From contig JAGGTK010000053.1 of the NCBI GenBank assembly GCA_021163765.1, positions 8,017 to 72,016 on the forward strand: a stretch of DNA of 64,000 nt, in the 5' to 3' direction. Of this stretch, positions 6,395 through 50,161 are shown one piece after another (position 1 is the first letter of the stretch; each line of letters begins with the position of its first letter). The position numbers and the translations under genes are program-made. This DNA is from a bacterium. Lineage in GTDB: Bacteria; 4484-113. The notes beneath the pieces were generated by a model that did no database searches, had not been told where the DNA came from, and saw nothing but the letters and a program-made list of their open reading frames with translations.

Positions 6395-7279
6395 TCATCC
6401 GTGCCGCACCATCTCCCCTACAAAAAGCCGGTAGTGTGCTGGCAGAGTCCGCTTTTTGTGCGAAATGACGAAGAACTTCCGCTTCATTCTGAGACCTTCC
6501 ATTCTGGCCACTGCCAGCCTTCCAGCAGATATCTCATCTGTAAGCGCAAACTTCGACAGAATCGATGCCCCGAGGCCCGCCTTGATTGCTTCTCTCACTG
6601 CGCCCGTCGAGCCGAGCACCGCCACTACGTTGAGGTCTTTGACGCCAAATCCCTTCTCCGCAAGGTACTCCTCCATTACCTTCCTCGTGCCTGAGCCTTC
6701 CTCTCTCAATAAAAACGGGATTGAACCGAGCAGCTTCAGCGAGACGCTGCGACGTCCAATCAACTGCGGAGAACCAGCTAGAACCAGTTCGTCTTCTACG
6801 AAAGGCGTGTAATCCAGTTTGCCGTTAACGGTCTTCGCCCCAACGGTGCCCAGCAGTATTTCGTGGTTCAGCACCAGGTTGGCTATTTCCTCTGTATCCC
6901 CAAGCCGGATTTCGAACGAAACGCCAGGATATTGCTTCACGAAGTCCGCGGCGATTGCCGGAAGGATATATGTCCCGGGAATAGTGCTCGCTCCGATAAC
7001 AAGCTCGCCCGCAACGTCGCGGTTTACACCCCGGATGGCATCCGGTATCCCGTCAAGTTTCTCTGTCAGGTCCAGAGCGTGAAGATAGAGCACTTCCGCT
7101 TCTTTAGTGGGGATCACCCTGCGCCCCGTCCGGTCGAAGAGCTTGCAGCCAAGTTCCTTCTCCAGGCTCATCACGTGATTGCTGACTGTCGGTTGCGTGA
7201 GCTTCAGTTCTCTGGACGCCTTCGAGAAGCTCTTTTGCCTGAATACAGAGGCGAATACGCGCAGTTGATGAACATCCAT
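6395..7279 (-). CDS. LysR-family transcriptional regulator
   Basis: N-terminal HTH MDVHQLRVFASVFRQKSFSKASRELKLTQPTVSNHV, LysR substrate-binding domain; likely start ATG at 7279 rather than ORF start 7432. Confidence 0.85.
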   Translation of the reverse strand: MDVHQLRVFASVFRQKSFSKASRELKLTQPTVSNHVMSLEKELGCKLFDRTGRRVIPTKEAEVLYLHALDLTEKLDGIPDAIRGVNRDVAGELVIGASTIPGTYILPAIAADFVKQYPGVSFEIRLGDTEEIANLVLNHEILLGTVGAKTVNGKLDYTPFVEDELVLAGSPQLIGRRSVSLKLLGSIPFLLREEGSGTRKVMEEYLAEKGFGVKDLNVVAVLGSTGAVREAIKAGLGASILSKFALTDEISAGRLAVARMEGLRMKRKFFVISHKKRTLPAHYRLFVGEMVRHG

Positions 7280-7285
7280 TATATA

Positions 7286-7295
7286 TAGAATTCTA
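7286..7295. promoter_or_regulatory. perfect 10-bp palindrome TAGAATTCTA (candidate LysR operator) in divergent intergenic region
   Basis: palindrome 7 bp upstream of LysR start; second inverted repeat ATAGTTTCTAT at 7306-7316. Confidence 0.35.
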
Positions 7296-7356
7296 GCATA
7301 ACCATGATAGTTTCTATGAAACAATGCGGATTGCACTGTGCTAATATTCTGGTATC

Positions 7357-8706
7357 GTGCGCTCCACGAAGGAATACAGGATTGACCCTTTGTCCTGCGC
7401 CTACTGCGCAAAGTGCCACTCCGTATGCCCAACCTACGAGGCTACCGGCAATGAGGGCTTTGCCGCCAGAGGAAAAATCCTCCTTGCAAGCGCTATGCGT
7501 GGAGACTTCTCCGCGCTGCCAGCGGGCCTTTTAGGCGACCCACGCGACAACGGCGCTGTCGACTGGCATGGCAACCGCGAACTTAACGAGTACCTCGACT
7601 TCTGCCTGCGATGCTACCGCTGCCTTGAGGTATGCCCATCAATGATGGCAACAGTGCCAATATTCGAAGCCATGCGCTTTGAAATCGCCCGTGAGCATCC
7701 TCCCCCGTTGCCTATGCAATGGCTGATGAGGTCGGTACTTGCAGAGCGGGGAAATACGCGCCTTCTTGCCGGGATTGGAGCCCTTCCGTTCTCATTGTTG
7801 CCGTGGGCTGCAAAGCGGGTACGGGCCAGCGATAAGCTACGGTCAGTGGCCAGCAAGCTCCACGTCGATATTCCTGCATCCACTCTCAGCGCTCGTTCCC
7901 CCACTGTATTCCTCGGCAAAATGGAATTTCCCCTGCCCGCTTCAGTACTGTCGCGGGGGCGCGTGTACGACTTCATCCGGAATCATCAAAACGTTGCCCA
8001 GCCTGAGCGCGGCACAATCGGCTATTTTCTCGATTGCCTGACCGACATTCATTTCCCAGGAGCGTTCTCAGGCACCGTAAGGCTGCTGAACTCGCTGGGC
8101 TTTCGCCTGGAGGCCGAGTTCAATTCGCCCTGCTGCGGAGCCAGCGCGCTTAATACCGGCGACGAGCAGGCGTTCGAGAAGATGGCAAGAAGCTACGCGA
8201 AGACCTTCGCGGATGCCCCTTTCGACCGGATTCTGTTCACAAATCCAACCTGCTATAAAACAGTTAAGGAACGATATCCGGAAATTTTAGGAGACAAGGA
8301 ACTTGCAGCCCTGCCCGAACCCGTGCTCGACGTGGAGCTATACAGCGAACTTCCCGCGCCGCCGATTCATCCGGCCTGGTCTGACCTGAACATCGCATGG
8401 CACAATCCCTGCACTCTGGGATACGCCCTAGGAGACAAGACAACTGCGCCATCAATCCTGCGGAAATGGGGACTGAAAATCAGCGAGTTCCCGGATGTCG
8501 AGGGATGCTGCGGCTATGGGGGCATGTTCTACCTGCGCTATCCTGAGTTTGCTGCGGAGCAGAGCGCCCGCAAACTAAAAGCCTGGCAGGACGCGGGGAT
8601 TGACCTGGCTATAACCTGCTCGGCGGGATGCATCGGCCATATCAACGCCACTGCCATCCGAGAGAATATCCCGATTCCCACAATTCACTGGGGCGAGCTG
8701 GGCTAG
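7357..8706 (+). CDS. (Fe-S)-binding oxidoreductase, GlcF/HdrD-like: 4Fe-4S dicluster domain plus two CCG domains
   Basis: CAYCAKCHSVCP and CLRCYRCLEVCP ferredoxin motifs; CCG motifs SPCCGASA and GCCGYGGM; GTG start. Confidence 0.8.
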   Translation: MRSTKEYRIDPLSCAYCAKCHSVCPTYEATGNEGFAARGKILLASAMRGDFSALPAGLLGDPRDNGAVDWHGNRELNEYLDFCLRCYRCLEVCPSMMATVPIFEAMRFEIAREHPPPLPMQWLMRSVLAERGNTRLLAGIGALPFSLLPWAAKRVRASDKLRSVASKLHVDIPASTLSARSPTVFLGKMEFPLPASVLSRGRVYDFIRNHQNVAQPERGTIGYFLDCLTDIHFPGAFSGTVRLLNSLGFRLEAEFNSPCCGASALNTGDEQAFEKMARSYAKTFADAPFDRILFTNPTCYKTVKERYPEILGDKELAALPEPVLDVELYSELPAPPIHPAWSDLNIAWHNPCTLGYALGDKTTAPSILRKWGLKISEFPDVEGCCGYGGMFYLRYPEFAAEQSARKLKAWQDAGIDLAITCSAGCIGHINATAIRENIPIPTIHWGELG

Positions 8707-32172: not shown

Positions 32173-33330
32173 GTGAAAACAGACCCTTCAGGGGTGCTGA
32201 CTGGCCAACATTATCTTGATGGCGACCATGCCTGCGGAGAGGGCGCTATGGCCGCTGGCTGCAGATTCGTTGCCGGCTACCCCATCACTCCTTCAACAGA
32301 AGTCGTAGAGCGCATCTCGCGCAGATTCCCCATGATGGGAGGCACGTTCATCCAGATGGAGGATGAGATGGCCAGCATGGCGGCAATCATTGGCGCATCG
32401 TGGACTGGAACTAAATCAATGACCGTTACCAGTGGCCCCGGATTCTCCCTGATGATGGAGAATATCGGCCTCGCCGCGATGATGGAAACACCATGCGTCA
32501 TTGTGAACGTGCAACGTGGCGGGCCGTCCACGGGGCTACCAACAAATGTAGGCCAAGCGGATATGATGCAGGCGCGATGGGGTTCGCACGGTGACTACGA
32601 AATCATCGCTTTGAGCCCTCAGTCACCACAGGAGGCTTTTGACGTCATGATTGACGCCTTCAATCTCTCGGAGATTTACCGCGTGCCGGTAATGGTCATG
32701 ACGGACGAATGCGTAGGGCATATGACCGAAAAGGTCGTAATCCCCAAGGCTGAAGACATAGAAATAGTGCCACGCAAGCTTACTGATAAGCCGCCAGGCG
32801 AATTCTGGCCTTACGTTGCTGACAGGAACATGATACCGGAATTCGCGCGCGCAGGAGATGGTTACAGGTTCCATAGCACCGGCCTGACGCACAACGAGCG
32901 TGGATATCCGGTAATGAGCGCGGAGTGCCAGCAGGAATGCGTAACCCGGCTGGTAGACAAAATCCGCCTTAACGCTGAAGACATAGTCCGTTTCGAGGAA
33001 GAGGATATTGACGGCGCTGACGTTGTCCTCGTGACTTACGGTATCACCGCGCGTGTTGCGCGACGCGGCATCGATATCGCCAGGAATAAGGGCGTCAAGG
33101 TTGGCGTCATCAGGCTCATTGTTGTATGGCCGTTCCCCGAACGTCACATTCGCGAACTTGCACCCAAGATCAAGGCATTCGTGGTGCCTGAAATCAACTA
33201 CGGACAGATTGTGCTGGAAGTTGAACGCTGTGCGGCCGGGCAGACTCTTACCGTCCTTGTCCCCCATATGGGGGGCACGGTACATGACCCAGAAGACATC
33301 GCAAACGCTATTTTGGAGGCTGCCAAATGA
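32173..33330 (+). CDS. 2-oxoacid:ferredoxin oxidoreductase alpha subunit (second copy)
   Basis: paralogous to 2362..3465 (GYPITPSTEV, GASWTGTKSMT). Confidence 0.88.
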   Translation: MKTDPSGVLTGQHYLDGDHACGEGAMAAGCRFVAGYPITPSTEVVERISRRFPMMGGTFIQMEDEMASMAAIIGASWTGTKSMTVTSGPGFSLMMENIGLAAMMETPCVIVNVQRGGPSTGLPTNVGQADMMQARWGSHGDYEIIALSPQSPQEAFDVMIDAFNLSEIYRVPVMVMTDECVGHMTEKVVIPKAEDIEIVPRKLTDKPPGEFWPYVADRNMIPEFARAGDGYRFHSTGLTHNERGYPVMSAECQQECVTRLVDKIRLNAEDIVRFEEEDIDGADVVLVTYGITARVARRGIDIARNKGVKVGVIRLIVVWPFPERHIRELAPKIKAFVVPEINYGQIVLEVERCAAGQTLTVLVPHMGGTVHDPEDIANAILEAAK

Positions 33331-34307
33331 GCAAGGTCGCGGAGCAAATACCTACAGAAGAAATGGAACACCCAGTAGCGCCGTACTTGCGCATGGATCG
33401 CATCCCGCATATCTGGTGCCCCACCTGCGGCATCGGAACGGTTGTCAGATGCTACGCTGACGCGCTTGAGCATTCCAAAATCGACCTGGACAAGGTGGCT
33501 ATTGTTTCGGGCATTGGGTGCACAGGACGTGTTGCGGGATATATGAGGCTTGATGCCTTTCACACCACCCACGGTCGTGCTATACCGTTTGCAACCGGCC
33601 TGAAGCTGGGCCGGCCTGAGTTGTTGGTTACTGTTTTCTCCGGCGACGGAGACCTGGTTGGCATCGGTGGTAATCACTTCATCCACGCTGCTCGTCGTAA
33701 TCTGGACATACTCGTTATCCTTGTAAACAACTTCATTTATGGAATGACCGGCGGCCAGAACGCTCCAACAACCCCGACGACTGCCAGAACATCTACCATG
33801 CCTTTTGGCAATTTCGAAAGGCCATTCAACCTGCCTCACCTGGCGGAGAGCTGTGGCGCTACATACGTGGCACGCTGGACTAGCCTGCATATTCGCAGGC
33901 TGACCAAGTCGTTCAGAGAGGCGATTAGCCGCAAGGGCTTCCGCTTCGTTGAGGTTATTGCTCCTTGCGCCACTCTGTATGCCCGCCTGAACAAGCTGGG
34001 GACCGGCTTCAACCTGATGCGGTTCTATCACGACAATGCGGTCATTGACCACGGAGCCGATACTCGCGACCTCGACATCAGCTTCCAGGACAGGATTATT
34101 TGTGGGAAGTTCGTGGACAAAGAGCGTCCGACATATAGTGAAATGATGCACGAGCACTATAGAAATGCCCTCGGCGACAAATTCGTGCCTTTACCTGAGG
34201 AAGGTGGAATGATACGCGATACTGGGGAAAAACCAGATTCCAAGGGCAAGAAGCCGGCTAAAAGCCAAAAGCGCAAGGCTTCGGCATCTAAATCCAGTAG
34301 AAAATAA
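33327..34307 (+). CDS. 2-oxoacid:ferredoxin oxidoreductase beta subunit (second copy) with Lys-rich C-terminal tail
   Basis: CPTCGIG, GIGCTGR, TPP-binding GDGD; stop overlaps next start (TAATG). Confidence 0.88.
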
Positions 34308-35539
34308 TGGAAGCGGCGCCAAATAAAAGAGCCCTCGTGATCGGCGGTGGCATCGCAGGCATTCAGGCGGCCTTGGACCTAGCCAACGCTCGCATTCCAG
34401 TAACACTGGTGGAGAAGTCCCCTACCCTGGGTGGGCGAATGGCCCAGCTCGACAAGACGTTCCCCACCATGGATTGCAGCATTTGAATCCTCGGCCCAAG
34501 AATGCTGGATGCCGGTCGGCATCCCCTGATAGATGTGATCTCCAACGCCGAGGTTATCGGTTGCGAAGGCAAGCCAGGTGACTTCAGCGTCCGTGTGCGT
34601 AAAAACAAGCGGTACGTACGGGAAGACCTCTGCGTCGCCTGTGGATTATGCACCGATGCCTGTCCGGTCATCGCGGGCAACGAGTTCGATGTAGGACTGA
34701 AAGCCCGCAAGGCAATCTACCGCCCGTTCCCGCAGTCCGTACCTGCGGCATACGTAATAGACCCTGAGTTCTGCATTAACCTTCTGGGACACCTCAGCGA
34801 GAAGCAAATTCGCAGGTTGGAGAAAATCCAGAAGGTCAAACAGCGCAAGAATCTGGACTACAGCTCCAACATCCTTCCCTGTGGGCACTGTACTGAAGCC
34901 TGCGAAGTCAATGCTATCGACTTTGATATGCAGATAGAGGAAAAGGACCTGAATGTCGGGGCGATATTGGTCGCTGTGGGATTTCAGGAATTCGATGCCC
35001 GCAAGCTGGGCAACTACGGCTACGGCCGCTTCCCTAATGTGGTCACCAGCCTTGAATTAGAGCGGATGCTGAACGCCTCCGGAGTGACCCAGGGCCATGT
35101 CGTGCGGCCGTCCGATATGAAGACCCCAAAGCGGTTAGTGTTTATCCAGTGTGTGGGCGCCCGCGGCGAAGGCGGGCGACCGTATTGCAGCCGCTTTTGC
35201 TGTATGAACGCTGTAAAAGATTCTATGCTGGTGCGGCAGCACGATCCGGAAGTTGAGGATGTCACCATCCTCTATACCGACCTCCGCGCTTTCGGCAAAG
35301 GATTCGACGACTTCGTGCAGCGGTCACGTGACGAAAAGAGCGCCACTTACGTACGAGGACGCCCCGCAAAGGTGGATATCGTTCCTGAGAATGACACGCT
35401 GGAAGTGTTCGTTGAGGACACGCTGGGGCATGAGCAGAAACGCATCCCCGCAGACCTGGTCGTGCTTTCGGTTGCTGCCGCGCCAAACGACGGTGCGGCA
35501 GATCTCTTTGATATCTTAGGGATTAACAGGGTGGAGTAG
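34307..35539 (+). CDS. HdrA-like flavoprotein module 1 (FAD domain + inserted 2x[4Fe-4S] ferredoxin), probable selenoprotein (UGA 34484-34486); ends at in-frame TAG 35537-35539
   Basis: [17 protein letters not shown] motif; [15 protein letters not shown] aligns with conserved DCSMCIL of HdrA; [13 protein letters not shown] and [12 protein letters not shown]; reading frame continues into next ORF. Confidence 0.75.
34507..34524 (+). promoter_or_regulatory. bacterial SECIS-like hairpin GGATGCC-GGTC-GGCATCC starting 20 nt after the UGA codon
   Basis: perfect 7-bp stem with GGUC apical loop (same loop as E. coli fdhF SECIS). Confidence 0.65.
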
Positions 35540-35542
35540 GGT

Positions 35543-37459
35543 TTGGGCCCCGAAGGAATTGCCGAGGCCCCCGCGGGGGAGAGCACCCGCGACGGTATCT
35601 TCGTGTGTGGCAGCGCGGTCGGCCCCCAGATAATTCCTGATTGTGTCGCGCAAGCATCGGCGGTCGCAGCCAGAGCACAACTGTTTTTAACCGGTCATCG
35701 AGTTGAGAAGCACGAGGAGCCCGTTGAGCTCCTGGACGTCACCGGTAAGCCGCGGATAGGAATCCTCGTCTGCCATTGCGGCATTAACATCGCGGGCGTA
35801 TTAGACATTGACGACCTCGTGCAGTACGCAACCGCTTTGCCGGATGTGGTGGCGGCTGCTGGCAGCACATTTGCCTGCTCTACAACAGGGCAGGACGAGC
35901 TGGTAGAGCTGATACGCGAACATAATCTGAATCGCCTTGTCATCGCCGCCTGCACCCCGCGCACTCACGAGCCTATATTCCGCGAAACCTGCACCCACAT
36001 TGGCTTCAACCCATACCTTATCGAGATGGTGAATATCCGTGACCAGTGCTCATGGGTGCATACCGGACAACCCGTCGAGGCGCAGGAAAAGGCACGTACG
36101 CTTATAAGGATGGGTGTTGCCCGGGCCCGGCAACTGGAGCCGCTGTTCGAAGGCGAAGTCCCGATGATGCACTCGGCTCTCGTAATTGGCGGTGGAATCG
36201 CCGGTATCCAGGCTGCAACAGACCTGGCAGTGCAGGGGTTCCCCGTTACGCTCGTTGAAAAGGAAGGGCAACTCGGAGGTCGCCTTGCGAAGCCACACCT
36301 GAAATACCTGTATCCCAATATGCGGCCGGCGACTGAGGTACTGGAAGCAAAACTCAAGCTACTTGAGGAAAGCGGCGCCAGAGTCCTGCTTAACACTGAT
36401 GTTGAGAGCATTACCGGATATGTGGGCAACTTCGAGGCTAATCTGACAGGGGAAACTGAAGAGCTCCTCCAGGTTGGCGCCATTATTTTAGCTGTCGGGG
36501 CGGATCTCTACGATCCTGAGGAAGAATATGGCTATTCGAAGTTTCCCAACGTAATCACAAGCCAAGAGCTGGAAACGATGCTGGTGGAGGACGACAAGAA
36601 CGTCGAGATTGCCGGCAGCCGTCCCAGGAGCGCGTCCTTTGTGCTGTGCGTTGGGTCGCGGGATCCGGAGCATTTCCCCGGCTGTTCGCGCTACTGCTGC
36701 CCTACCGCGATAAAGCAAGCTATCCTGCTGCGACGCATGGGGATGGATATAACCATCTTCTACCGCGATATCCGCACGATTTCGACCGGTGCGGAGGAAA
36801 TGTACCGCGAGGCCAGAGGTTTGGGAGTTCTGTTCATCCGGATCCCTGAAGGCGACAAAGTCCAGGTAAGCGGGACAGACCACGCTGAATCGGTGCGATG
36901 CTTCGACGACCTTCTCGGCCGACACCTCGAAGTGCCCACTGACCTGGTCGTGTTAAGCGTGGGCATGCAGCCCAAGCAACCTGAAACATCAAAGTTCCAT
37001 GACATCCTGAAGGTTAGCGTCGGGCTTGACGGCTTCTTCATGGAGCTGCACCCGGAGCTCGGCCCGGTGGAAACCCCCGTGGAGGGCGTGCTTCTTGCGG
37101 GAACGGCTCAGGGGCCGAAAGATATTGTGGATACCGTCGCCCAAGCTTCCGCTGCCGCTGCGAAGGCCTCTATATTCCTGGCGCATGACACCGTTAGCCT
37201 CAATCCAGCGGTATCTGAGGTGATTGAGGAAAAATGCCGGGGCTGCGGCACCTGCGCGGAAATCTGCGAATTCCATGCACCCGCACTCGTCGAGATCGAG
37301 CCTGGCACCTTCGTCGCGCGTATCAACGCCAGTCTTTGCAAGGGTTGCGGCACGTGCACCAGTTGGTGCCCCTCCGGCGCGATTGTCTCCAAGCATTTCA
37401 CCGACCGGCAGGTCCACGCGATGATTGATGCTCTGTTCACAACTGAAACATCGAAATGA
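35543..37459 (+). CDS. HdrA-like flavoprotein module 2, preceded in-frame by the C-terminal FAD-domain strands of module 1
   Basis: first approx. 50 aa (DGIFVCGSAVGPQIIPDCVAQASAVAA) complete module-1 FAD domain; then HdrA N-domain GILVCHCGINIAG, FAD motif [15 protein letters not shown]-terminal CRGCGTCAEICE/CKGCGTCTSWCP; TTG start with GGTGGAG RBS if TAG is a real stop. Confidence 0.7.
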   Translation: MGPEGIAEAPAGESTRDGIFVCGSAVGPQIIPDCVAQASAVAARAQLFLTGHRVEKHEEPVELLDVTGKPRIGILVCHCGINIAGVLDIDDLVQYATALPDVVAAAGSTFACSTTGQDELVELIREHNLNRLVIAACTPRTHEPIFRETCTHIGFNPYLIEMVNIRDQCSWVHTGQPVEAQEKARTLIRMGVARARQLEPLFEGEVPMMHSALVIGGGIAGIQAATDLAVQGFPVTLVEKEGQLGGRLAKPHLKYLYPNMRPATEVLEAKLKLLEESGARVLLNTDVESITGYVGNFEANLTGETEELLQVGAIILAVGADLYDPEEEYGYSKFPNVITSQELETMLVEDDKNVEIAGSRPRSASFVLCVGSRDPEHFPGCSRYCCPTAIKQAILLRRMGMDITIFYRDIRTISTGAEEMYREARGLGVLFIRIPEGDKVQVSGTDHAESVRCFDDLLGRHLEVPTDLVVLSVGMQPKQPETSKFHDILKVSVGLDGFFMELHPELGPVETPVEGVLLAGTAQGPKDIVDTVAQASAAAAKASIFLAHDTVSLNPAVSEVIEEKCRGCGTCAEICEFHAPALVEIEPGTFVARINASLCKGCGTCTSWCPSGAIVSKHFTDRQVHAMIDALFTTETSK

Positions 37460-37920
37460 CTCCGACCAAAACCAAACGCAAGGCAAAGTCCGGTTCCACA
37501 AAGTGGAACCCCAACATCGTGGTTTTTGCGTGCAACTGGTGTTCATACGCGGGTGCGGATACCGCCGGAGTTTCGCGAATCCAGCATGAACCGCACTTCA
37601 GGATGATCCGCGTAATGTGCTCCGGTCGCATCCAGCCAGGCTTCGTTCTCAAGGCTTTTGAGAGGGGAGCGGACGGCGTTCTGGTCTCTGGCTGCCACAT
37701 CGGCGACTGCCACTACATCTTTGGAAACGAGCGCGCACTGGAGCAGTTCGAGAAGACTAAGAATATGGTCAGGCTCCTCGGCCTGGAGGAAGGGCGGCTT
37801 CGTTTGGAATGGATAAGCGCCGCTGAGGGCGCACGATTTGCCGAGGTTATCAACGATTTCACTGCCCAGGTGCGGAAACTGGGGCCGAGCCCACTCAACA
37901 CCGGCAATGGGGAACGCTAA
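37456..37920 (+). CDS. methyl-viologen-reducing hydrogenase delta subunit homolog (MvhD/FlpD)
   Basis: VVFACNWCSYAGAD and VSGCHIGDCHY motifs; start overlaps upstream stop (ATGA). Confidence 0.85.
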   Translation: MTPTKTKRKAKSGSTKWNPNIVVFACNWCSYAGADTAGVSRIQHEPHFRMIRVMCSGRIQPGFVLKAFERGADGVLVSGCHIGDCHYIFGNERALEQFEKTKNMVRLLGLEEGRLRLEWISAAEGARFAEVINDFTAQVRKLGPSPLNTGNGER

Positions 37921-37926
37921 AGGGAT

Positions 37927-39087
37927 ATGAAAACGACTTCAACCCCTGAAATTGCGGAAATCGCCGATAAGGCCAGAGCGTGGGCCTGCTACGACTGCGG
38001 GAAATGCACGGCGACCTGCCCCATTGCCCGGGTTGGCGGCGCTCTCAGCCCCCGGCGGCAGGTGCTGGCAGCCAATCTCGGTCACCGCGAGGACATTATT
38101 ACCAATAATGCCCTTTTCGCCTGTCTTACCTGCGGGTTGTGCAGCTCACGTTGCCCTGCCGGAGTGGTTTACTGCGAGCTGGTTCTAAACCTGCGCCAGC
38201 TCGCATTCCACGACGGCGTTGAGCCTGAGTGCCCGCACGGCGGCGCACTTCAATCAATGATGCGAATGATGGCCAAGGGTAAAACAAAGCAAGACCGCCT
38301 AAGCTGGCTGACCAAAGATTTGAAGGTTCAGCACAAGAAGGGAGATGTTTTCTACTGGACCGGTTGCACGATGTACTACGATGCGTTCTTCCCCGACTTC
38401 AATATCACGACTCTGGACGCTACACGGGCTGCCATTCGCGTACTGAACCGACTGGGCGTGACGCCGGTAGTTTCACCGGACGAGCGATGCTGCGGGCATG
38501 ACCTTCTGTGGAACGGTGACCGGGCGAATTTTGAGCTCCTCGCAAGGCATAACGTTAAACTCGTTGAATCCAGCGGCGCAAAAACGCTTGTCATCTCCTG
38601 TGCTGAGTGCCTGCGAACATGGAATATCGACTACCAGCCATTCTTTGAGACTAGCCCTCCAAAGATTATGCATATAACCGAGTTTATGCAAGAAAATCTG
38701 GATAATCTGAAGTTCAAAGCCAACAAGGAGCATACGGTCACTTATCAGGACCCCTGCCGGCTGGGCAGGCACCTAGGGATCTTCGATCCGCCGCGCGCTA
38801 TACTAGAAGCACTGCCTGATATCACCCTGGCGGAAATGCCCCGCTCCGGAAAAAACTCCATATGCTGCGCTGGGGGGACTTGGTCTAACTGCGACCGCTA
38901 CGCCAAGCACATCCAGGTAGACCGCCTGCGCGAGGCAAAGTCAACAGGTGCTGAGTTCCTTGTTACGTCCTGCCCTAAATGCCAGATACATTTCGCATGC
39001 GCTATGAAAGACCCGAATTTACACGAGGAGATTGAAATCCCGATGCGCGATATCGCCACGCTGGTTGCAGACGCGCTGGCGGATTGA
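37927..39087 (+). CDS. HdrD-like subunit (HdrC-type 4Fe-4S dicluster domain fused to HdrB-type double CCG domain)
   Basis: CYDCGKCTATCP and CLTCGLCSSRCP; CCG motifs ERCCGHD and SICCAGG. Confidence 0.82.
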   Translation: MKTTSTPEIAEIADKARAWACYDCGKCTATCPIARVGGALSPRRQVLAANLGHREDIITNNALFACLTCGLCSSRCPAGVVYCELVLNLRQLAFHDGVEPECPHGGALQSMMRMMAKGKTKQDRLSWLTKDLKVQHKKGDVFYWTGCTMYYDAFFPDFNITTLDATRAAIRVLNRLGVTPVVSPDERCCGHDLLWNGDRANFELLARHNVKLVESSGAKTLVISCAECLRTWNIDYQPFFETSPPKIMHITEFMQENLDNLKFKANKEHTVTYQDPCRLGRHLGIFDPPRAILEALPDITLAEMPRSGKNSICCAGGTWSNCDRYAKHIQVDRLREAKSTGAEFLVTSCPKCQIHFACAMKDPNLHEEIEIPMRDIATLVADALAD

Positions 39088-39131: not shown

Positions 39132-41597
39132 ATGGGAGGAGAATTAATGGACAGTGACCCGAAAGGTGACGGACTGCGAGTAGGCGTCTTCGTATGTGAT
39201 TGCGGCCTTAACATCGCGGGGACGGTCGACACCCAGGCAGTGACAGATTACGCGGCAACTCTTCCAGACGTCGTGTGCGCCATCCGGAACCGCTACACCT
39301 GTGCTGATCCGGGGCAGAACGAAATCAAGAAAGCCATTGCCGAGCACCGCCTGAACCGAGTAGTTATCGCTTCCTGCACCCCGTTACAGCACGAGCCCAC
39401 ATTCCGGACCTGCGTCGCTGAGGCAGGCCTTAATCGTTACCTCATGGAAATGGCCAACCTGAGGGAACAATGCTCCTGGGTACATCCCAGCGACATGGAG
39501 GGCGCTACCAGAAAGGCGAAAGACCTGGTAGCAGGCGCAGTGGCACGGGCACGAAATCTGCAGCCGCATGACGACCTGTCGGTTCCTGTCACCAAGCGCG
39601 CGCTTGTCATCGGGGGAGGTATAGCCGGCATGGAAGCTGCGCTCGAGCTGGCCGACTCGGGGCATCAAGTGGTACTGGTTGAAAAGGAGGCATCCATCGG
39701 TGGGATTATGGCTCAACTGGACAAAACATACCCCACCATGGATTGCTCCATATGAATTCTCGGCCCTAAGGCCATAGATGTCGGTCGACATCCAAACATA
39801 GAACTCCTAACCTACAGCGAGGTAGTGAATGTATCGGGCTACATCGGTAACTTTACGGCGGAAATCCGCCGGAAGGCGCGCTATGTGGACCCGGAGGCAT
39901 GCACCGCATGTGCGGAGTGCGCCCAGGTGTGCCCGGTGGTGAAACCCGACGAGTATCAGATGGGGCTATCCTCCCGGAAAGCCATCTACATTCCCTACCC
40001 CCAGGCGGTGCCATCCTCCTACATCCTTAATATGGAAGATTGCCTGGGAACCAATCCCATCGCCTGTGGAAAGTGTGCCGAAGTATGCGAGCCGGACTGT
40101 ATCAATTATGATGACCGCGACATAATCGTCAAGCGTGATGTGGGTGCGGTAATCGTGGCAATCGGCGCTGACGTGTATGACCCCACCGAGATGGATGAAT
40201 ACGGCTACACGCGCTTCGACAATGTGATCACTTCCATGGAATTCGAGCGCCTAATATGCGCTGGTGGGCCGACGCTGGGCCACTTTGTGCGACCGAGTGA
40301 CCATGAGCGTCCGAAGCGCATCGGCTTCATACAATGTGTTGGATCCCGAAATCCTAGCATTGGGAGGCCCTACTGCTCCAATATCTGCTGCATGAACACC
40401 ATCAAGGACACTCTCCTGTTGGCTGACCATTACCCGGACGTAGAGTGCACCGTGTTTTACCAGGACATTAGAGCTTTCGGGAAGTCGTTTGAGGACATGT
40501 TCCAGCGCTCTAAGGAGGCTGGCACCCGTTATATCAGAGGAATACCGGGTGATATTGAAGAGGATACTGAAACCGGCAACCTCACCCTCATAGCAGAAAA
40601 CACCACTAGCGGCAAGATAGAGCGTCATGAGTTTGACATGGTTATCCTATCCGTTGGGGTCGGACCGCCCAAGGATCTTGCTAAAATCTCCAGTCTGCTA
40701 ACACTCTCCAAGACCTCGGATGGCTTCTTCATGGAGTCCCATCCGAAACTGAAGCCTGTTGATGCCCCCACGCGCGGAGTTTTCTTCTCTGGCTTTTGCG
40801 AATCCCCCAAAGACATCAAGGATTCTGTATGTCAGGCCGGTGCAGCTGCTTCACGCGCTGGCGCGCTGCTTAACGCGGGCCAGGTCCATATTGAGGCGAT
40901 TACCAGCGTGATTGACGCGGATGCCTGCAAGAAGTGCGGTGTATGTGCGAGCGTTTGCCCCTATGGCGCAATCACATGGAAGAAGGGCGAAGTGGCCGTT
41001 GTCATCGACGCCGCGTGCGCGGGCTGCGGAAACTGCGGCGCCGCCTGCAAATTCGACGCGATTACGATGCGCCACTTCACAGACGCGCAGTATATGGCTC
41101 AGATTCGCGCCATCCTGGCCGAAGACCCGCAGGACAAAGTCTTCGTGTTTGCGTGTAACTGGTGCTCATACAGCGGCGCGGATATGGCTGGCATTTCACG
41201 AATGCAATATCCGGCCTCCAATCGAATCGTAAGGACTATGTGCTCAGCGCGTGTCTCCGAGGATATGGTGCTTGAAGCGTTCCGTTGCGGCGCACCGGTG
41301 GTTCTCGTTTCCGGCTGCCATTACGCTGACTGCCACTATATCACTGCAAACAGGCAAACCGTTCAGCGCGTCCAGCGCCTGTGGAACAAGCTGGAGAAAG
41401 CCGGTGTCAGGCCGGAACGGCTGCAGCTCGAGTGGATTAGCGCCGCCGAGGGCCAGAAGTTCGCCAAGGTGATGGCCCAGATGGAGGAATTGCGAAAAAC
41501 GGTGACGGAGGAGGAAATCGAGTACACGATTGAGGCTCTAAAGCCAAAACCCAGGAAGCCTAAGAAGGAGAAGGAAGCTGCCGCAGTGGCCGGGTAG
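39132..41597 (+). CDS. HdrA-MvhD fusion flavoprotein, probable selenoprotein (in-frame UGA 39753-39755)
   Basis: single frame through 39132..39755 and 39825..41597; N-domain VFVCDCGLNIAG; [14 protein letters not shown]; YPTMDCSI-TGA-ILGP; inserted and C-terminal ferredoxin motifs; C-terminal MvhD domain (VFVFACNWCSYSGAD, VSGCHYADCHY). Confidence 0.78.
39777..39792 (+). promoter_or_regulatory. bacterial SECIS-like hairpin GATGTC-GGTC-GACATC starting 21 nt after the UGA codon
   Basis: perfect 6-bp stem with GGUC loop; same spacing and loop as the element at 34507. Confidence 0.65.
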
Positions 41598-41621: not shown

Positions 41622-41798
41622 ATGGCAACAATGGAGAACTTCAAATGTATGTTGTGCGGTCACGAGTACCAGGAACTCGTTGAAGAAGGCGAGGACAAGG
41701 AACGCTCCTGTCCCAAGTGCCGTTCCAACAGCATTCGACATCTTAAGAAACGCGCCTCGCAGGGTGATTCCGATGACAAAGGCAAGAAAACCGAATAA
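41622..41798 (+). CDS. FmdB-family zinc-ribbon protein (58 aa), below the 60-aa ORF-track threshold
   Basis: MATMENFKCMLCGHEYQELVEEGEDKERSCPKCRS (CxxC-n17-CxxC); GGAGG RBS 6 nt upstream; overlaps hdrC start by 26 nt in another frame. Confidence 0.6.
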   Translation: MATMENFKCMLCGHEYQELVEEGEDKERSCPKCRSNSIRHLKKRASQGDSDDKGKKTE

Positions 41799-42294
41799 CG
41801 ACGATGTCGTAAAGGTAGACTTCGACTTCAGGCGCCAGCTCGCCAAGAAAGTCGAGGGCAACCTGGCCAGCTTTTGTTATCAGTGCGGGGCCTGCGTGGG
41901 CGATTGCCCTGCCGCAACCTACAGTGACGAGTTCAACCCCCGGGAGATAATGCTCAAAGTGTTATACGGACTTGGCGAGGAACTGCTGGTGGAGAACTCA
42001 GTATTGTGGCAGTGCACCAACTGCTACAACTGCGCAGAGCGATGCCCCCAGGACGTTAAGCCGGTCGAGGTCATCATCTCGCTGAAGAATATGCTCGCGG
42101 ACCTGAATATCTATCCCCCTACCGTGGAAAAGATCATCGGCACATTTGAGAAAACCGGCCGTACAACTCCCCTAAGCCCTGCGGTGGACCGGCAGCGCGA
42201 GCGGTTTGGGCTGCCACCGATGAAGCCTGTCCCCATGGACGAGATCAGCAAGCTTCTTGAGCCTGCATCCGATGAGGAGGATGATGCAGAGTGA
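41773..42294 (+). CDS. hdrC: heterodisulfide reductase subunit C-like (2x[4Fe-4S])
   Basis: CYQCGACVGDCP and CTNCYNCAERCP; likely start ATG 41773 (ORF open from 41680). Confidence 0.8.
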   Translation: MTKARKPNNDDVVKVDFDFRRQLAKKVEGNLASFCYQCGACVGDCPAATYSDEFNPREIMLKVLYGLGEELLVENSVLWQCTNCYNCAERCPQDVKPVEVIISLKNMLADLNIYPPTVEKIIGTFEKTGRTTPLSPAVDRQRERFGLPPMKPVPMDEISKLLEPASDEEDDAE

Positions 42295-43181
42295 AGCCCT
42301 TTGCATTTTTCCCCGGCTGCCTGATTCCTGTTCGCTATCCGGCGATGGAGTTCGCCATCCGCCAGACCTTGCCCAAGCTGGGCATCGAAATAGTTGACCT
42401 TGAAGGCGCGTCCTGCTGCCCTGACCCAATCTACTTCAAGTCCAAGGACAAGGTCGCGTGGCTCTCCGTTGCTGCGCGCAACCTTACGCTGGCCGAAGAT
42501 CTGGGCCTAGATGTGTTCACTAACTGCTCCGGTTGCACTGCAACGCTTTCGGAGGCTTACCACCTTCTGAAGAACGACGAACTCAGAGAAAAGGTCAACA
42601 GGCGACTTAAAAAGATTGGCCGCAAGTACAAGGGCACGAGCAGAGTCCGGCACGTTGCGACCCTTGTTCGTGATGAAGCAGGCTACGACGCGGTGCGTGA
42701 ATCGGTCGTGCGCCCGCTGGACGGTATGAAAATGGCCATTCACTACGGCTGCCACCTGCTGAAGCCGAGCAAGATTATGAACGTAGACGACCCCAACAAC
42801 CCTGAAGTCCTGGAAAAAATGGTAGAAGCTATTGGCGCCACTCCGGTGCGCCATCGCAACTGGTATCTCTGTTGCGGAAAGGCCTGCCAGCATGAGGCTA
42901 TTCCCCTGAATATGATGCATGCCCTGCTGGGCACGGTGAAGGACGTGGAAGCGGAAATCCTGTGCCTAATCTGTCCAACCTGCTTCAGCCAATTCGATCA
43001 CGGCCAGATGAAGGTCGCCAAGCACTTCAACGACGATTACCACATCCCGCCGGTATACTACTTCCAATTGCTAGCTTACGCACAGGGCATTCCCTATGAT
43101 AAGCTTGGGTTTGACCGCCAGCGGTTCAAGCCTGAAAGCCTGCAACGCTTTGCAACCTCATCGGCACAGGTGGAAAATTGA
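42291..43181 (+). CDS. hdrB: heterodisulfide reductase subunit B-like (two CCG domains)
   Basis: GASCCPDP and YLCCGKAC CCG motifs; GTG start overlapping hdrC stop (GTGA). Confidence 0.82.
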   Translation: MKPFAFFPGCLIPVRYPAMEFAIRQTLPKLGIEIVDLEGASCCPDPIYFKSKDKVAWLSVAARNLTLAEDLGLDVFTNCSGCTATLSEAYHLLKNDELREKVNRRLKKIGRKYKGTSRVRHVATLVRDEAGYDAVRESVVRPLDGMKMAIHYGCHLLKPSKIMNVDDPNNPEVLEKMVEAIGATPVRHRNWYLCCGKACQHEAIPLNMMHALLGTVKDVEAEILCLICPTCFSQFDHGQMKVAKHFNDDYHIPPVYYFQLLAYAQGIPYDKLGFDRQRFKPESLQRFATSSAQVEN

Positions 43182-43215: not shown

Positions 43216-43776
43216 ATGAGCACTACTGAACTTCGAGTCAGCGGCTTTGGCGGCCAGGGCGTGATTCTCTGCGCCTATATCATCGGCCGCGCTGCGGCGC
43301 TACATGACGGGAGACATGCCACGCTTACCCAGAGCTTTGGCCCTGAGGCCCGCGGCAGCGCGTGTAGCGCCCAGGTAATCCTGTCCGATGACCCTGTTCT
43401 ATATCCGTACGTGCAGCATCAGAATGCCCTTGTCTGCATGTCCCAAGAGGCTTATGACAAGTTCGAGCCGGAGACAGACACCGACGGCATCCTGCTTTAC
43501 GAGGAGGAGCTTGTCACGCCCCACGAACCGCGCGCCGACATGAAAGTGTACGGTATTCCAGCCACCCGAATCGCTGAGGAACTCGGGCGAATAATCGTGG
43601 TTAATATCGTGATGCTCGGCTTCTTTACAGCGACTACAGGTCTGCTCCCAATGGAGGCGGCCCGCAAAGCGGTTGAAGAATCTGTTCCTGAAGGCACCGA
43701 GAAACTCAACCTGGCCGCTTTCGACCGTGGCTATGAATACGGAATTAAGCTGGTTGAAGAAAAAGCAGCGAAGTGA
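43216..43776 (+). CDS. 2-oxoacid:ferredoxin oxidoreductase gamma subunit (second copy, separated from D-A-B by the Hdr module)
   Basis: VSGFGGQGVIL gamma-family motif, paralog of 4289..4852. Confidence 0.85.
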   Translation: MSTTELRVSGFGGQGVILCAYIIGRAAALHDGRHATLTQSFGPEARGSACSAQVILSDDPVLYPYVQHQNALVCMSQEAYDKFEPETDTDGILLYEEELVTPHEPRADMKVYGIPATRIAEELGRIIVVNIVMLGFFTATTGLLPMEAARKAVEESVPEGTEKLNLAAFDRGYEYGIKLVEEKAAK

Positions 43777-46894: not shown

Positions 46895-48469
46895 TTAGTT
46901 CTCCTCCACCGCTGCCATGCAAACTCGATTGCGCCCGCTGCGCTTGGCCTTATAGAGCGCCTTGTCCGCCATCTCCACGAGGCTGTTTCTGTTAACAGCC
47001 ATCTGCGGGAAAAGCGCAACACCCACACTGACAGTCACCGGCAACTTCAAGCCGTTGTATTCGAAATCGTGCTCCTCAACGAGTGACCTGATCTTCTCGC
47101 CAACCACCAGCGTCACGTCATAGTCAGCCTGCGGGATGATGATTGCAAACTCCTCCCCGCCGTACCGTGAAATGATTTCAGTCGCGCGCAAGCCTTCATT
47201 TAGCACCTTGCAGAGCTCCACGAGCACATAGTCGCCGACCTGATGCCCGTACGAGTCGTTTATCTGTTTAAAATGGTCGATATCGACCATAGCCAGCCCG
47301 ACCGAATGGCTGTAGCGCGACGCCCTCGTGAGCTCTATCTCCATGAATGTCTCGAACTGGCGCCGGTTATTTACCCCTGTGAGAGGGTCAGTTGTGGCCA
47401 TTTCCTTCAGCCGGTTCGTAAGAATAACATTCCCCACTATCTGGCGCAGCGTTCCTCCGAAAGTGGTCAGAAACCTGAAGTCCTCCTCTGTGAAGTCTGG
47501 CGGGTCGGTACGGTTCACAAATATAAGACCGTAATTCTCATCGTCAATATGGAGGTCGTAAGTCATATACGAGTGAGCCGCGCAGATCTTGGTCAGCGGG
47601 TTATCGAGGTCGAAATCAAGGATACGCTGGACCTTGGGGGTCGGTGGGTTAGCGTGGAAGCGCGGATAGTAATCCTCCAGCATCTCGTTTATCTCGCGCT
47701 CCTTGTGCTGGACACCCCAGTAAAAGCCTTGCTTTATGACGCTTTCAAAAGCGCTCAGCACCTGTGGGTCCAGGCTGGGATGCATTTTTTCTCCAAATAT
47801 CTCAAGAATATGTGCGGGTTCCTGCCTTGTACGCTCCTGCCCGCTAAGCTTGCTGTAGATCACGCGGAAGAACTGCGAGTGGAAAAAAGCCACACCGTCA
47901 TCGGCTTGCAGAATCGTCATTAGCTTCGCCAGAAGCCTCTCCGGAATCTGTGCATCCCGCACGAGATTCGATTCGCTCATCTGCGACACTTGTCCCAGCA
48001 GTGAGAGTTCCTCAACCTGCCTGAAGAGAACGTTCTCCTGAAGACGCATGTAATCCTGAAAGAGCTTGACCCGCACTTCGTCACTCGTGAACTTCAGGTA
48101 AGTCTCCTCTACTAAGTCACGAGACCTCTCCGGGCTGGGGTTCGCGGTTACGTATTCCACAAGCGTAATGAAGGTGTGCTCCCCGAGAAGCGACACTTCA
48201 TTTATTCGTAGCTGCAAATGCAGGTTCCTTGTAGCGAGCCGTATTAGCGTTAGCAGGAAATAGCCAAGGTCTCCTTCTCCCAGTGATTTAACCGCGGATG
48301 AGACCAATTGGCGAAGCACTCTGATTGATTCCTCTTTCTCCAAAAACTCCAGCAACTCACCGCAACGCTGGCAGATTTGTTCGGTTATTTCCCCCTCATG
48401 GGTCTTGAGATGAAGCGCTACCTCCAGGCGTTCATCGCGTCCAAATGTAGCTATTTCAACAGCAGTCAT
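46895..48469 (-). CDS. GGDEF-domain diguanylate cyclase with N-terminal sensory region
   Basis: DPLTGVNNRRQFE and RYGGEEFAII (GGEEF) motifs. Confidence 0.82.
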   Translation of the reverse strand: MTAVEIATFGRDERLEVALHLKTHEGEITEQICQRCGELLEFLEKEESIRVLRQLVSSAVKSLGEGDLGYFLLTLIRLATRNLHLQLRINEVSLLGEHTFITLVEYVTANPSPERSRDLVEETYLKFTSDEVRVKLFQDYMRLQENVLFRQVEELSLLGQVSQMSESNLVRDAQIPERLLAKLMTILQADDGVAFFHSQFFRVIYSKLSGQERTRQEPAHILEIFGEKMHPSLDPQVLSAFESVIKQGFYWGVQHKEREINEMLEDYYPRFHANPPTPKVQRILDFDLDNPLTKICAAHSYMTYDLHIDDENYGLIFVNRTDPPDFTEEDFRFLTTFGGTLRQIVGNVILTNRLKEMATTDPLTGVNNRRQFETFMEIELTRASRYSHSVGLAMVDIDHFKQINDSYGHQVGDYVLVELCKVLNEGLRATEIISRYGGEEFAIIIPQADYDVTLVVGEKIRSLVEEHDFEYNGLKLPVTVSVGVALFPQMAVNRNSLVEMADKALYKAKRSGRNRVCMAAVEEN

Positions 48470-48477
48470 AATTCACC

Positions 48478-50154
48478 TTATGCGAAGCGACGCAGGAACT
48501 CCTCAGCCAGAGCACGGCCCTCCCTGTGTTCTGCATCTCCAAGCATTCTGGCTACAGCGCGGACTCTGCTGGCGCCTGATAGCTCGTTGACGGCAATGCT
48601 GGTCTTCCTGGTCCCGGAGGTCTTTACCACGTCCAGATGCCGATGCCCGGCTGCCGCGACCGCAGCAAGATGTGTGACGGCTATCACCTGGTGTTCCTTG
48701 GAAAGGTCTCTTAGGACACTTGCGACATTAAACGCTGCGTCCCCTCCAACGCCCGCTTCTATTTCGTCGAACACAATAGTAGTATACGACAGTTGCCTTT
48801 GAAGCGCTGCTTTCACAGCCAGAAGCAGCCGTGCAGCTTCTCCCCCTGACGCCACCTCCGCCAGCGGCCGGGCGGGCTGTCCGGGATTCAGGCAGACGAT
48901 GAACTCCACGTGACCCAACCCGTGCTCCCTCAGATCGTCAAGCTCCGGCTCGTCCGGCTCACTTATCTCCACAATAAATTGAGCGGTGGGGAATCCCAGT
49001 CGCTCCAGGTACTGTTGAACGGCCTTTTCCAGTTTCCGTGAGATTTCGCGCCTTCTCTGATTAATGCCAACGGCAGCATGGAGAAGCTTCTCGCCGAGCG
49101 CGTCAACACGCACCTGAAGTGCCTCCACCTGCTCGGGTGTAGCACTTAGAGCCTCCAGTTTCGCGCGAGAATCCGCCAGAAGCTTTGGTAGCTCATCCGC
49201 TGACACCCTATACTTGTGTTCCAGCCGCTGAATTTCATCCAGCCGCCGTCGCAGCTTATCCGTCTCGTCCGCGCTGTGCTCCTGGATCTCCGCAATCTCA
49301 CCGAGCAGTTGACTGGCTTCTGTAATTCCTTCCATCAAGGATGTGAGCGTTTGAATTACTCCTTCCAGCCGCGCTTCCAGACGCGCATCATTGACCAGAG
49401 CAGATAGCTCATCTTTTGCCCGGGCGATGAGGTCAAACGCGGAAGAAGCGTCATCTTCATCCTCGAATAGCAGATGCGAGGCTCTTGAAACCCGCTGAAG
49501 GATTTCTTCCGCATGCTCCTGCACGTAGAGTTCTGTGGAAACCTGCTCCTTTTCACCCGCGCTTACGTTAGCCTCTGCAAGTTCAGAGACCTGAAACTCC
49601 AGGTAATTGCGCTCGTCTTCGCCTCTGCGCACAGCTTCCCGGCACAGAGCGAGTTCCTTGCGGCTGGAATTCAACTCAGAATATCGGGCACGGAAAGCTG
49701 ATACGCTTTTTTTGAAATCAGAATCACCAAAGGCATCGAGAAGCTCACGGTGGAAGCCTGTCCGGAATATCTCCTGTTGTGAGAACTGGCTGCTGATGTC
49801 GATGAGCGGGGCGACAATCTCGCGAAGGGCGGCAACTTTGACGGGTTTGCCGTTCAGGGTCAAGCTGCCGCGTCCGCTCCGGCTGAATGTCCGCATCAGC
49901 GTGAGCTTCCGGGGCACTCCCGTCTGACTTGCGATTGGTGGCGTAAACTGGAATTCCGCGCGCACGGAGCACCTGTCACCATACTGCCCAATGATTGTCT
50001 GGTTAGGACGTTTGCCCAACGCAAACGATATGGCATCAAGCACGAGTGTCTTTCCTGCACCGCTCTGGCCTGTGAGAACATTCAATCCCGGGGTGAATTC
50101 CACACTCAGGTCCCGCAGAAGTGAGAAGTTCGCAACGTGAAGCTCGGTAAGCAC
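48478..50154 (-). CDS. recN: DNA repair protein RecN
   Basis: SMC-like N-terminus LNVLTGQSGAGKT, long coiled coil, C-terminal signature/Walker B; GTG start at 50154 avoids overlap with nadK. Confidence 0.85.
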   Translation of the reverse strand: MLTELHVANFSLLRDLSVEFTPGLNVLTGQSGAGKTLVLDAISFALGKRPNQTIIGQYGDRCSVRAEFQFTPPIASQTGVPRKLTLMRTFSRSGRGSLTLNGKPVKVAALREIVAPLIDISSQFSQQEIFRTGFHRELLDAFGDSDFKKSVSAFRARYSELNSSRKELALCREAVRRGEDERNYLEFQVSELAEANVSAGEKEQVSTELYVQEHAEEILQRVSRASHLLFEDEDDASSAFDLIARAKDELSALVNDARLEARLEGVIQTLTSLMEGITEASQLLGEIAEIQEHSADETDKLRRRLDEIQRLEHKYRVSADELPKLLADSRAKLEALSATPEQVEALQVRVDALGEKLLHAAVGINQRRREISRKLEKAVQQYLERLGFPTAQFIVEISEPDEPELDDLREHGLGHVEFIVCLNPGQPARPLAEVASGGEAARLLLAVKAALQRQLSYTTIVFDEIEAGVGGDAAFNVASVLRDLSKEHQVIAVTHLAAVAAAGHRHLDVVKTSGTRKTSIAVNELSGASRVRAVARMLGDAEHREGRALAEEFLRRFA

Positions 50155-50161
50155 GTGGTTT

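Follow-up and report, generated by a model that had tools for sequence, protein, structure and literature searches.

In-frame UGA codons and SECIS-like hairpins in two hdrA genes of a bacterial contig

The window analyzed here is a 64,000-nucleotide stretch of bacterial DNA (GenBank assembly GCA_021163765.1, contig JAGGTK010000053.1, positions 8,017 to 72,016 of the forward strand). It includes a gene for a protein of the HdrA family, termed module 1, whose reading frame is interrupted by UGA at 34484-34486. Sequence comparisons make it highly probable that this UGA is a selenocysteine (Sec) codon in a bacterial HdrA-type flavoprotein, and that a hairpin at 34507-34524 is its selenocysteine insertion sequence (SECIS). 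The codon occupies the position of a Cys or Sec residue in HdrA proteins of solved structure, and the hairpin is maintained in relatives that carry UGA at this position, but rarely in those that carry Cys.

Reading frame and predicted product of module 1

The main features of module 1 are as follows.

34307..35539, + strand: HdrA unit A (module 1), first half of an HdrA-HdrA fusion gene; from translation, Pfam and PDB alignment
34484..34486, + strand: UGA, codon 60, probably read as Sec; from alignment with Cys197 of 5odc_A and the Sec (X) of 9sfi_A
34507..34524, + strand: putative bacterial SECIS hairpin GGAUGCC-GGUC-GGCAUCC, which also encodes (L)DAGRH(P); from folding, comparison of TGA and Cys forms, and covariation

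The frame from ATG 34307, which overlaps the TAA of the upstream gene for the beta subunit of a 2-oxoacid:ferredoxin oxidoreductase (OFOR) as TAATG, passes through TGA 34484-34486 and joins the open reading frame (ORF) 34502-35539, with the next stop at TAG 35537-35539. The initial annotation had described this frame, and translation reproduced all of its coordinates. Its start and frame of the gene stand, whereas its gene end at 35539 is the point where the TAG cuts the front half of the fused HdrA-HdrA gene. The codons around the UGA are GAC AAG ACG TTC CCC ACC ATG GAT TGC AGC ATT TGA ATC CTC GGC CCA AGA ATG CTG GAT GCC GGT CGG CAT CCC. Two matches to the degenerate pattern M-D-C-x-x-TGA-I-L-G-P are present in the window, vs. 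none in 100 shuffles.

Judged by its predicted sequence, the product is an HdrA-type flavoprotein. Unit A comprises a flavin adenine dinucleotide (FAD) Rossmann fold, a Cys57-x-x-Sec60 motif, an inserted ferredoxin domain and a thioredoxin reductase (TrxR)-like core, with Pfam matches to Pyr_redox_2, FAD_oxidored and NAD_binding_8; the FAD-binding Rossmann fold and TrxR-like core by which HdrA is recognized are thus both present. Residues 6-157 and 190-409 align with residues 143-513 of the solved HdrA structures 5odc_A (E = 1e-111) and 9sfi_A (E = 7e-112). In the PDB alignment and domain comparison, neither the N-terminal cluster domain nor the C-terminal ferredoxin domain was found in unit A; both are present in the downstream HdrA unit B. 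Unit A alone therefore lacks the four-domain architecture of HdrA, and units A and B together form a fused or tandem pseudo-dimer. Tandem and fused HdrA proteins with such a complementary distribution of domains are known from earlier work (PMC9012536).

Residue 60, encoded by the TGA, falls on Cys197 of 5odc_A (...FPTNDCSICILAPK...) and on X of 9sfi_A (...FPTDDCAMXILAPK...). Column-by-column alignment with FPTNDCSICILAP (5ODC) and FPTDDCAMXILAP (9SFI) reveals the D-C-x-x-C/U motif (Cys194/Cys197 in 5ODC) in module 1, in agreement with the earlier claim that the TGA takes the place of the second Cys of a DCxxC motif. The same column thus holds Cys197 in a Cys-containing HdrA, Sec197 in a Sec-containing one and the UGA in the window. 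In Methanococcus maripaludis HdrA this residue is Sec197, and the cryo-electron microscopy map of 9SFI was read as a Cys-Sec selenenylsulfide between FAD and cluster A3 (PMC13518236). In the earlier crystal structure, as reviewed in PMC9012536, Cys197 is the ligand which one HdrA gives to the N-terminal [4Fe-4S] cluster of its partner.

Among the best 120 database homologues, all 74 full-length proteins with a recognizable motif carry Cys at the UGA position. The 28 closest (72-84% identity) cover 83% of the query and are all called from just after the TGA, as is the window gene itself: GenBank entry MCD6282770.1 (345 aa, 34502-35539) starts after the UGA, MCD6282771.1 corresponds to 35543-37459, and Sec is not annotated. 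The FAD-binding N-terminus and the presumably redox-active Sec are therefore missing from the protein record, and the same mis-call affects these 28 homologues.

The hairpin downstream of the UGA codon

The module 1 hairpin is a perfect 7-bp stem with a GGUC loop (-11.5 kcal/mol when folded alone), which starts 20 nt past the TGA and places its loop 27 nt past it. The initial annotation had described exactly this hairpin, and had ascribed to it the geometry and loop of a bacterial SECIS. The consensus bacterial SECIS (bSECIS) has an upper stem of 4-16 bp, a UGA-to-loop spacing of 16-37 nt and a minimum free energy of -7.5 kcal/mol or lower (PMC13188914). Module 1 agrees with the published model on all four points considered, i.e., an in-ORF stem-loop with suitable spacing (27 nt, as in the second hdrA gene of the window, termed module 2), loop and stem (GGUC with 7 bp, or 6 bp in module 2), folding energy, and conservation tied to UGA with compensatory changes, and the ascription is thus upheld. 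GGUC is also the loop found in the Escherichia coli fdhF SECIS, where SelB makes contact with the G and the U of the loop. The fdhF/bSECIS model resembles the window in having an in-ORF hairpin just after UGA with a small apical loop beginning G-G/U; unlike fdhF, the window loop lies about 9 nt further from UGA, and the window hairpins have neither a bulged U nor a long lower helix. On the + strand of the window there are nine perfect hairpins with 7 bp and a 4-nt loop, of which only that of module 1 has GGUC; 25 have a 6-bp stem, and among these GGUC is found only in the two behind the hdrA TGAs.

Several points weigh against reading UGA 34484-34486 as Sec. The 62-nt region around the hairpin folds no better than dinucleotide shuffles (z = +0.58), and 4.7% of all TGA triplets in the window precede some hairpin that satisfies the constraints published for bacterial SECIS elements. 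Rfam gave matches at chance level, and no SECIS family, both for the whole window at the gathering threshold and for 34440-34580 at E up to 10. The module 2 hairpin is energetically borderline (-7.1 kcal/mol with flanks and -14.0 kcal/mol in a 47-nt context); alone, at -6.1 kcal/mol, it misses the -7.5 kcal/mol limit and fails a simple bSECIS test on energy. In the 64-kb window, selA, selB and selD were not found by NCBIfam searches of about 54 ORFs, and ARAGORN gave no tRNA and hence no tRNA-Sec. The TAG at 35537 interrupts module 1, so that this copy could be non-functional or mis-assembled there. Finally, all the evidence is at sequence level, with SelB binding, actual Sec insertion and the redox role being predictions from it. 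Because of the z value and the 4.7% background, the hairpin alone is weak evidence. As z is not significant, the thermodynamic argument was dropped in favor of comparative evidence, and the weight is carried by the fixed register, the loop and the conservation of the hairpin.

One genome per species was scanned for the pattern [F/Y]-P-T-x-D-C-x-x-TGA-I-L-[G/A]-P, which gave at least 120 loci with TGA in the HdrA motif. Among the matches listed, the bacterial labels include Desulfobacterota lineages, Chloroflexota, Planctomycetota, Gemmatimonadota, Acidobacteriota, KSB1, Zixibacteria and others, and the archaeal ones Asgard and other archaea. The bacterial TGA forms carry a post-TGA hairpin in a fixed register and in several versions, namely GGAUGCC-GGUC-GGCAUCC (peptide DAGRH), GGAUGUC-GGUC-GACAUCC (DVGRH), GAGGCC-GGUC-GGUCUC (EAGRS), UGACGC-GGC-GCGUCA (VDAARH, Chloroflexota) and CUGGUCG-AGGU-CGGCCGG (LVEVGRH). 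The change from DAGRH to EAGRS alters two residues and keeps the pairing (U:A to G:C and G:C to G:U). Similarly, module 2 differs from module 1 by a compensatory change of C:G to U:A, which replaces Ala by Val on one arm and is synonymous (CGG to CGA) on the other.

Covariation was counted on 109 distinct bacterial sequences over a 7-pair helix. The cells of the helix are paired in 86% of cases, vs. 25-57% when the 3' partners are slid by 1-3 columns. Double-sided changes number 38, vs. 12.9 +/- 2.7 in column shuffles, and the covariation score is 0.195, vs. 0.116 in the shuffles; for both measures, none of 500 shuffles reached the observed value. These results indicate selection on the hairpin. 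The simple bSECIS rule test accepts 96 of the 109 bacterial TGA forms, 1 of 15 archaeal forms and 4 of 113 Cys forms; module 1 passes it throughout. Archaeal-looking TGA forms were found to lack an in-ORF hairpin, and the one of the 15 that passes is probably a mis-binned bacterial contig. This absence is as expected, since SECIS elements of archaea are known to lie in the untranslated region and not within the ORF (PMC13188914). Two loci bear labels at odds with their sequences: one labeled Bathyarchaeota (L006) has a bacterial-type in-ORF hairpin identical to that of Syntrophorhabdus-like loci, and one labeled Bacteroidales (L038) has an Asgard-like hdrA sequence without a hairpin. Both labels are probably binning errors in public metagenome-assembled genomes (MAGs).

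As the hairpin lies wholly inside a conserved peptide motif, it could be a by-product of the D-A-G-R-H peptide and GC-rich codons, with the UGA possibly read as Sec by means of another signal; the unexceptional local folding energy and the 4.7% background are in line with this. Cys forms were therefore used as a control: metagenomes were searched for a TGY motif with D-[A/V]-G-R-H at the same distance, leaving the synonymous positions free, and 120 loci were found (L123-L242). All six pairs are kept in only 7 of 114 distinct Cys-form sequences, in which loops and codons vary widely. For the same peptide, they are kept in 67 of 68 distinct TGA-form sequences, in which the loop is GGUC (64) or GGUA (4) and essentially three codon combinations are used. 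The difference in hairpin retention is significant (Fisher's exact p = 1.9e-40), for a Cys set from metagenomes and a Sec set mostly from genomes, which differ in taxonomic make-up. The RNA structure is therefore maintained only with the UGA codon, which is the signature expected of a SECIS. In addition, the EAGRS, VDAARH and LVEVGRH lineages change the peptide, and each keeps a hairpin with G first in the loop at a similar distance. A mere coding by-product is thus improbable. The TGA and Cys forms of the same peptide constitute a natural experiment on how a single sequence can accommodate both an RNA hairpin and a conserved peptide.

The seven Cys-form sequences which encode D[AV]GRH and retain the complete 6-bp hairpin may carry remnant SECIS elements after a recent Sec-to-Cys conversion; such remnants have been described (PMC1794560).

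Other readings of the UGA codon and the divergent patch

The TGA might be a true stop, leaving a 59-aa Rossmann fragment and a separate protein from ATG 34502, or a pseudogene. Gene callers and the Prokaryotic Genome Annotation Pipeline start the protein at ATG 34502, and a further in-frame TAG is present downstream in this assembly. However, the break would interrupt a single FAD domain, precisely at a conserved Cys with a redox or cluster-ligand role, and no pseudogene model explains a break at the same codon in a paralogue and in at least 120 genomes of many phyla. ATG 34502 is not preceded by a Shine-Dalgarno sequence, and many TGA lineages have no Met after the TGA (e.g., ILAPKLVEAGRSP), which excludes re-initiation as a general solution. 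Moreover, the hairpin is selected only alongside TGA. A true stop is accordingly quite unlikely.

A sequencing or assembly error is considerably less likely still. TGA is separated from TGC or TGT by a single base, and a suspicious 54-nt divergent patch is located 1 kb downstream on the same contig. However, two independent assemblies, L243 (JGI 3300016457) and L244 (ENA ERZ23499370), are collinear with window positions 24502-47459 without gaps (99.88-99.89% identical), and in both of them the two hdrA TGAs and the two hairpins are identical to those of the window, with no Cys codon at the site. The protein is present on nine contigs, and the sequence was compared at these two places. The TGA and the same hairpin are also carried by more distant relatives (L001, a 3.8-Mb MAG labeled Phycisphaerae, and L002). 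The codon is thus reproducible across assemblies.

Genome-wide reassignment of UGA to Trp or Gly (genetic codes 4 and 25) can practically be dismissed: the host is a deep-branching bacterium whose nearest named RecN is 57% identical and comes from Riflebacteria, but TGA is the ordinary stop of 13 of the 44 family-supported window genes, none of these 13 has an internal TGA, and the long ORF pairs joined by a single stop on the coding strands comprise only the two hdrA TGA sites, the TAG at 35537 and frame-sharing neighbor genes (30589).

If UGA 34484-34486 specifies Sec, the established bacterial pathway suggests that SelB-GTP carrying Sec-tRNA(Sec) would bind the GGUC loop 27 nt downstream when the ribosome reaches the UGA, and would deliver Sec to the A site; the hairpin would then be melted by the ribosome and translated as D-A-G-R-H. 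By analogy with homologous structures, Sec60 would pair with Cys57 (Cys57-x-x-Sec60) beside the bifurcating FAD, and may act either as a ligand to the N-terminal [4Fe-4S] cluster of the partner or in a Cys-Sec selenenylsulfide relay. The partner subunit of module 1 is probably the fused or adjacent HdrA unit B, in which the N-terminal cluster domain is present and the CxxC absent. Module 2 (UGA 39753, hairpin 39777-39792) would use the same recoding device.

The TAG that ends unit A lies in the following feature.

35525..35578, + strand: 54-nt hyper-divergent patch with the in-frame TAG 35537-35539; from comparison with L243 and L244

Between the window and L243/L244 there are 25-27 mismatches in 22,958 nt, and 21 of them are inside this patch. 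The differences are substitutions only, without indels; they are not adenine-specific, the patch is GC-rich, and palindromes GGGCCC and CCCCCGCGGGGG are created. At the TAG position, the codon is Tyr or His in L243, L244, nine more distant relatives and 7 of 10 cluster members, and all ten 985/1006-aa members of the same 90% cluster are one continuous protein. In this assembly only, the TAG replaces a conserved Tyr codon, so that an HdrA-HdrA fusion of 985 aa becomes two ORFs of 345 and 638 aa, the second of which, from TTG 35543, is preceded by a possible Shine-Dalgarno sequence (GGTGGAG). The patch may stem from mis-assembly at this spot, from conversion over a short tract or from true variation between strains; a donor copy was not found within the window. 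Pyrrolysine or programmed read-through at TAG 35537 was rejected, since the near-identical assemblies have TAC and the TAG lies in a patch of 21 substitutions. A diversity-generating retroelement was rejected as well, since the substitutions are not adenine-specific and no template copy is present in the window. Four further mismatches to L243/L244 fall within 6 nt at 47141-47146, inside a GGDEF-domain gene (46895-48469, - strand).

The second hdrA gene, the operon and known systems

The two hdrA genes are located among genes for other Hdr-like proteins and for OFOR subunits.

32173..33330, + strand: OFOR alpha, directly upstream of the hdr genes
33327..34307, + strand: OFOR beta, overlapping the hdrA start
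35543..37459, + strand: HdrA unit B; from domain searches
37456..37920, + strand: MvhD/FlpD-like [2Fe-2S] adaptor, a Cys form without TGA (PF02662, E = 4.7e-52)
37927..39087, + strand: HdrD-like protein with a ferredoxin domain and two CCG domains (PF02754, PF13183)
39132..41597, + strand: probable second selenoprotein gene (module 2), full-length HdrA fused to MvhD; from translation, 5odc_A alignment and the FlpD domain
39753..39755, + strand: in-frame UGA of module 2, equivalent to Cys197; from alignment, identical in L243 and L244
39777..39792, + strand: putative module 2 SECIS hairpin GAUGUC-GGUC-GACAUC, in the same register as in module 1
41680..42294, + strand: HdrC-like gene, with Fer4_8 and CCG domains in the HdrC/HdrB pair (41680..43181)
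42291..43181, + strand: HdrB-like gene, the other member of this pair
43216..43776: OFOR gamma, at the far end of the operon after the hdr genes

Unit B contains, in order, the last part of the TrxR domain of unit A, an N-terminal-type [4Fe-4S] domain, a second FAD domain and a C-terminal ferredoxin domain; its FAD domain lacks both the CxxC and the inserted ferredoxin domain. In module 2, ORF 39132-39755 and ORF 39825-41597 share a frame and are joined through the TGA in the context YPTMDCSI*ILGPKAIDVGRHP. When the stop is replaced by Cys, the alignment of the product with 5odc_A extends over its full length (residues 5-649, E = 4e-234), and the product has all four HdrA domains and a C-terminal MvhD domain. 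In L243 and L244, module 2 is called as two pieces, one of 202 aa (39147-39755 in window coordinates) and one of 590 aa (39825-41597).

OFOR alpha, beta and gamma genes adjoin Sec-HdrA in 16-19 of the 122 loci examined, with labels of several phyla (Planctomycetota, Gemmatimonadota, KSB1, Armatimonadetes, Neomarinimicrobiota and others); these loci include L001, L012, L020, L025, L037, L059, L076, L081, L092, L101, L102, L110, L111 and L113. This linkage suggests that OFOR and Hdr work together as a conserved unit. No specific description of an OFOR-Hdr complex came up in a literature search. From the gene order, it is conceivable, if rather doubtful, that a single, undescribed soluble complex is made up of both Sec-HdrA modules and the OFOR subunits on either side. 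Such a complex may link the oxidation or synthesis of 2-oxoacids to flavin-based electron bifurcation or confurcation, and the arrangement of the genes is compatible with an electron path that may run through HdrA(Sec)-HdrA', MvhD, the HdrD-like subunit and HdrA(Sec)-MvhD-HdrBC. If this is true, the OFOR-Hdr complex would represent a widespread but unstudied means of dealing with low-potential electrons.

The family, the site and the mechanism have already been described. The earlier suggestion that module 1 encodes a Sec-containing HdrA like those of some methanogens is supported, and Sec-HdrA is known in bacteria as well: HdrA has been recognized as a bacterial selenoprotein since 2006, when Zhang et al. 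found 16 bacterial Sec-HdrA genes, up to seven of them in Syntrophobacter fumaroxidans, and pointed out hdrA-hdrA fusions (PMC1794560). HdrA is also counted as one of the core selenoproteins of archaea (PMC13188914). As Sec-HdrA is long established, the window gene adds to a known family.

The HdrA proteins of M. maripaludis (9SFI/9T1S, Sec197) and Methanothermococcus thermolithotrophicus (5ODC, Cys197) belong to the same family and have the same residue at the position of the window codon. In archaeal Sec genes the SECIS lies in the untranslated region, whereas the putative window SECIS is inside the ORF; window module 1 has no N-terminal domain, a second HdrA unit is fused to it or comes next, and its partner enzymes appear to be OFOR subunits rather than hydrogenase or formate dehydrogenase.

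The bacterial Sec-HdrA genes of Syntrophobacter fumaroxidans, Syntrophus, Desulfotalea, Moorella and others resemble those of the window, with an in-ORF SECIS, fused hdrA-hdrA genes, several copies per genome, and co-occurring MvhD/FrhD and GlpC/HdrD-like genes (PMC1794560). Their operons are glpC-hdrA-frhD-frhG-frhA, whereas that of the window is bracketed by OFOR alpha/beta and gamma; the MvhD and HdrD-like proteins of the window are Cys forms, and its host is non-deltaproteobacterial.

BamE of the class II benzoyl-CoA reductase of Geobacter metallireducens is likewise a fused HdrA dimer, with Cys59-x-x-Cys62 in its first TrxR unit (bioRxiv 10.64898/2026.04.10.717634). Likened by description, the gene order BamE-BamF-BamD (with MvhD-like BamF and HdrD-like BamD) matches HdrA-HdrA', MvhD and HdrD-like in the window. 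However, the BamE pair is Cys-Cys, the Sec of that complex is in BamF, and its output is the tungsten enzyme BamBC; the window would have a Cys-Sec pair and OFOR.

What is new is modest, i.e., the host lineage, which is added to the users of Sec-HdrA, the OFOR context of the operon and the missing GenBank annotation; nothing is changed in the knowledge of Sec decoding or of HdrA.

Apart from the two hdrA genes, the window contains a single gene related to selenium, listed below, which is counted in favor of Sec in HdrA.

6395..7432, - strand: LysR-family regulator, 'selenium metabolism-associated' (NF040786, 281.7 bits vs. a cut-off of 250)

A gene for a CCG-domain Fe-S protein (7357-8706, + strand), divergent from the LysR gene, has a weak match to NF045663 ('diclust_near_Sec'); no in-frame TGA was seen in it.

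The host is an uncultured bacterium of a poorly sampled lineage. Relatives of its RecN (48478-50208, - strand) that are near-identical or 80-86% identical occur only on metagenome contigs, followed by the 57% homologue from a Riflebacteria MAG and then by proteins below 40%. For the hdrA genes, by contrast, MAGs labeled Phycisphaerae, Planctomycetes and Acidobacteriota contain genes with 72-84% identity, which suggests lateral spread of the operon. The host lineage is possibly related to Riflebacteria.

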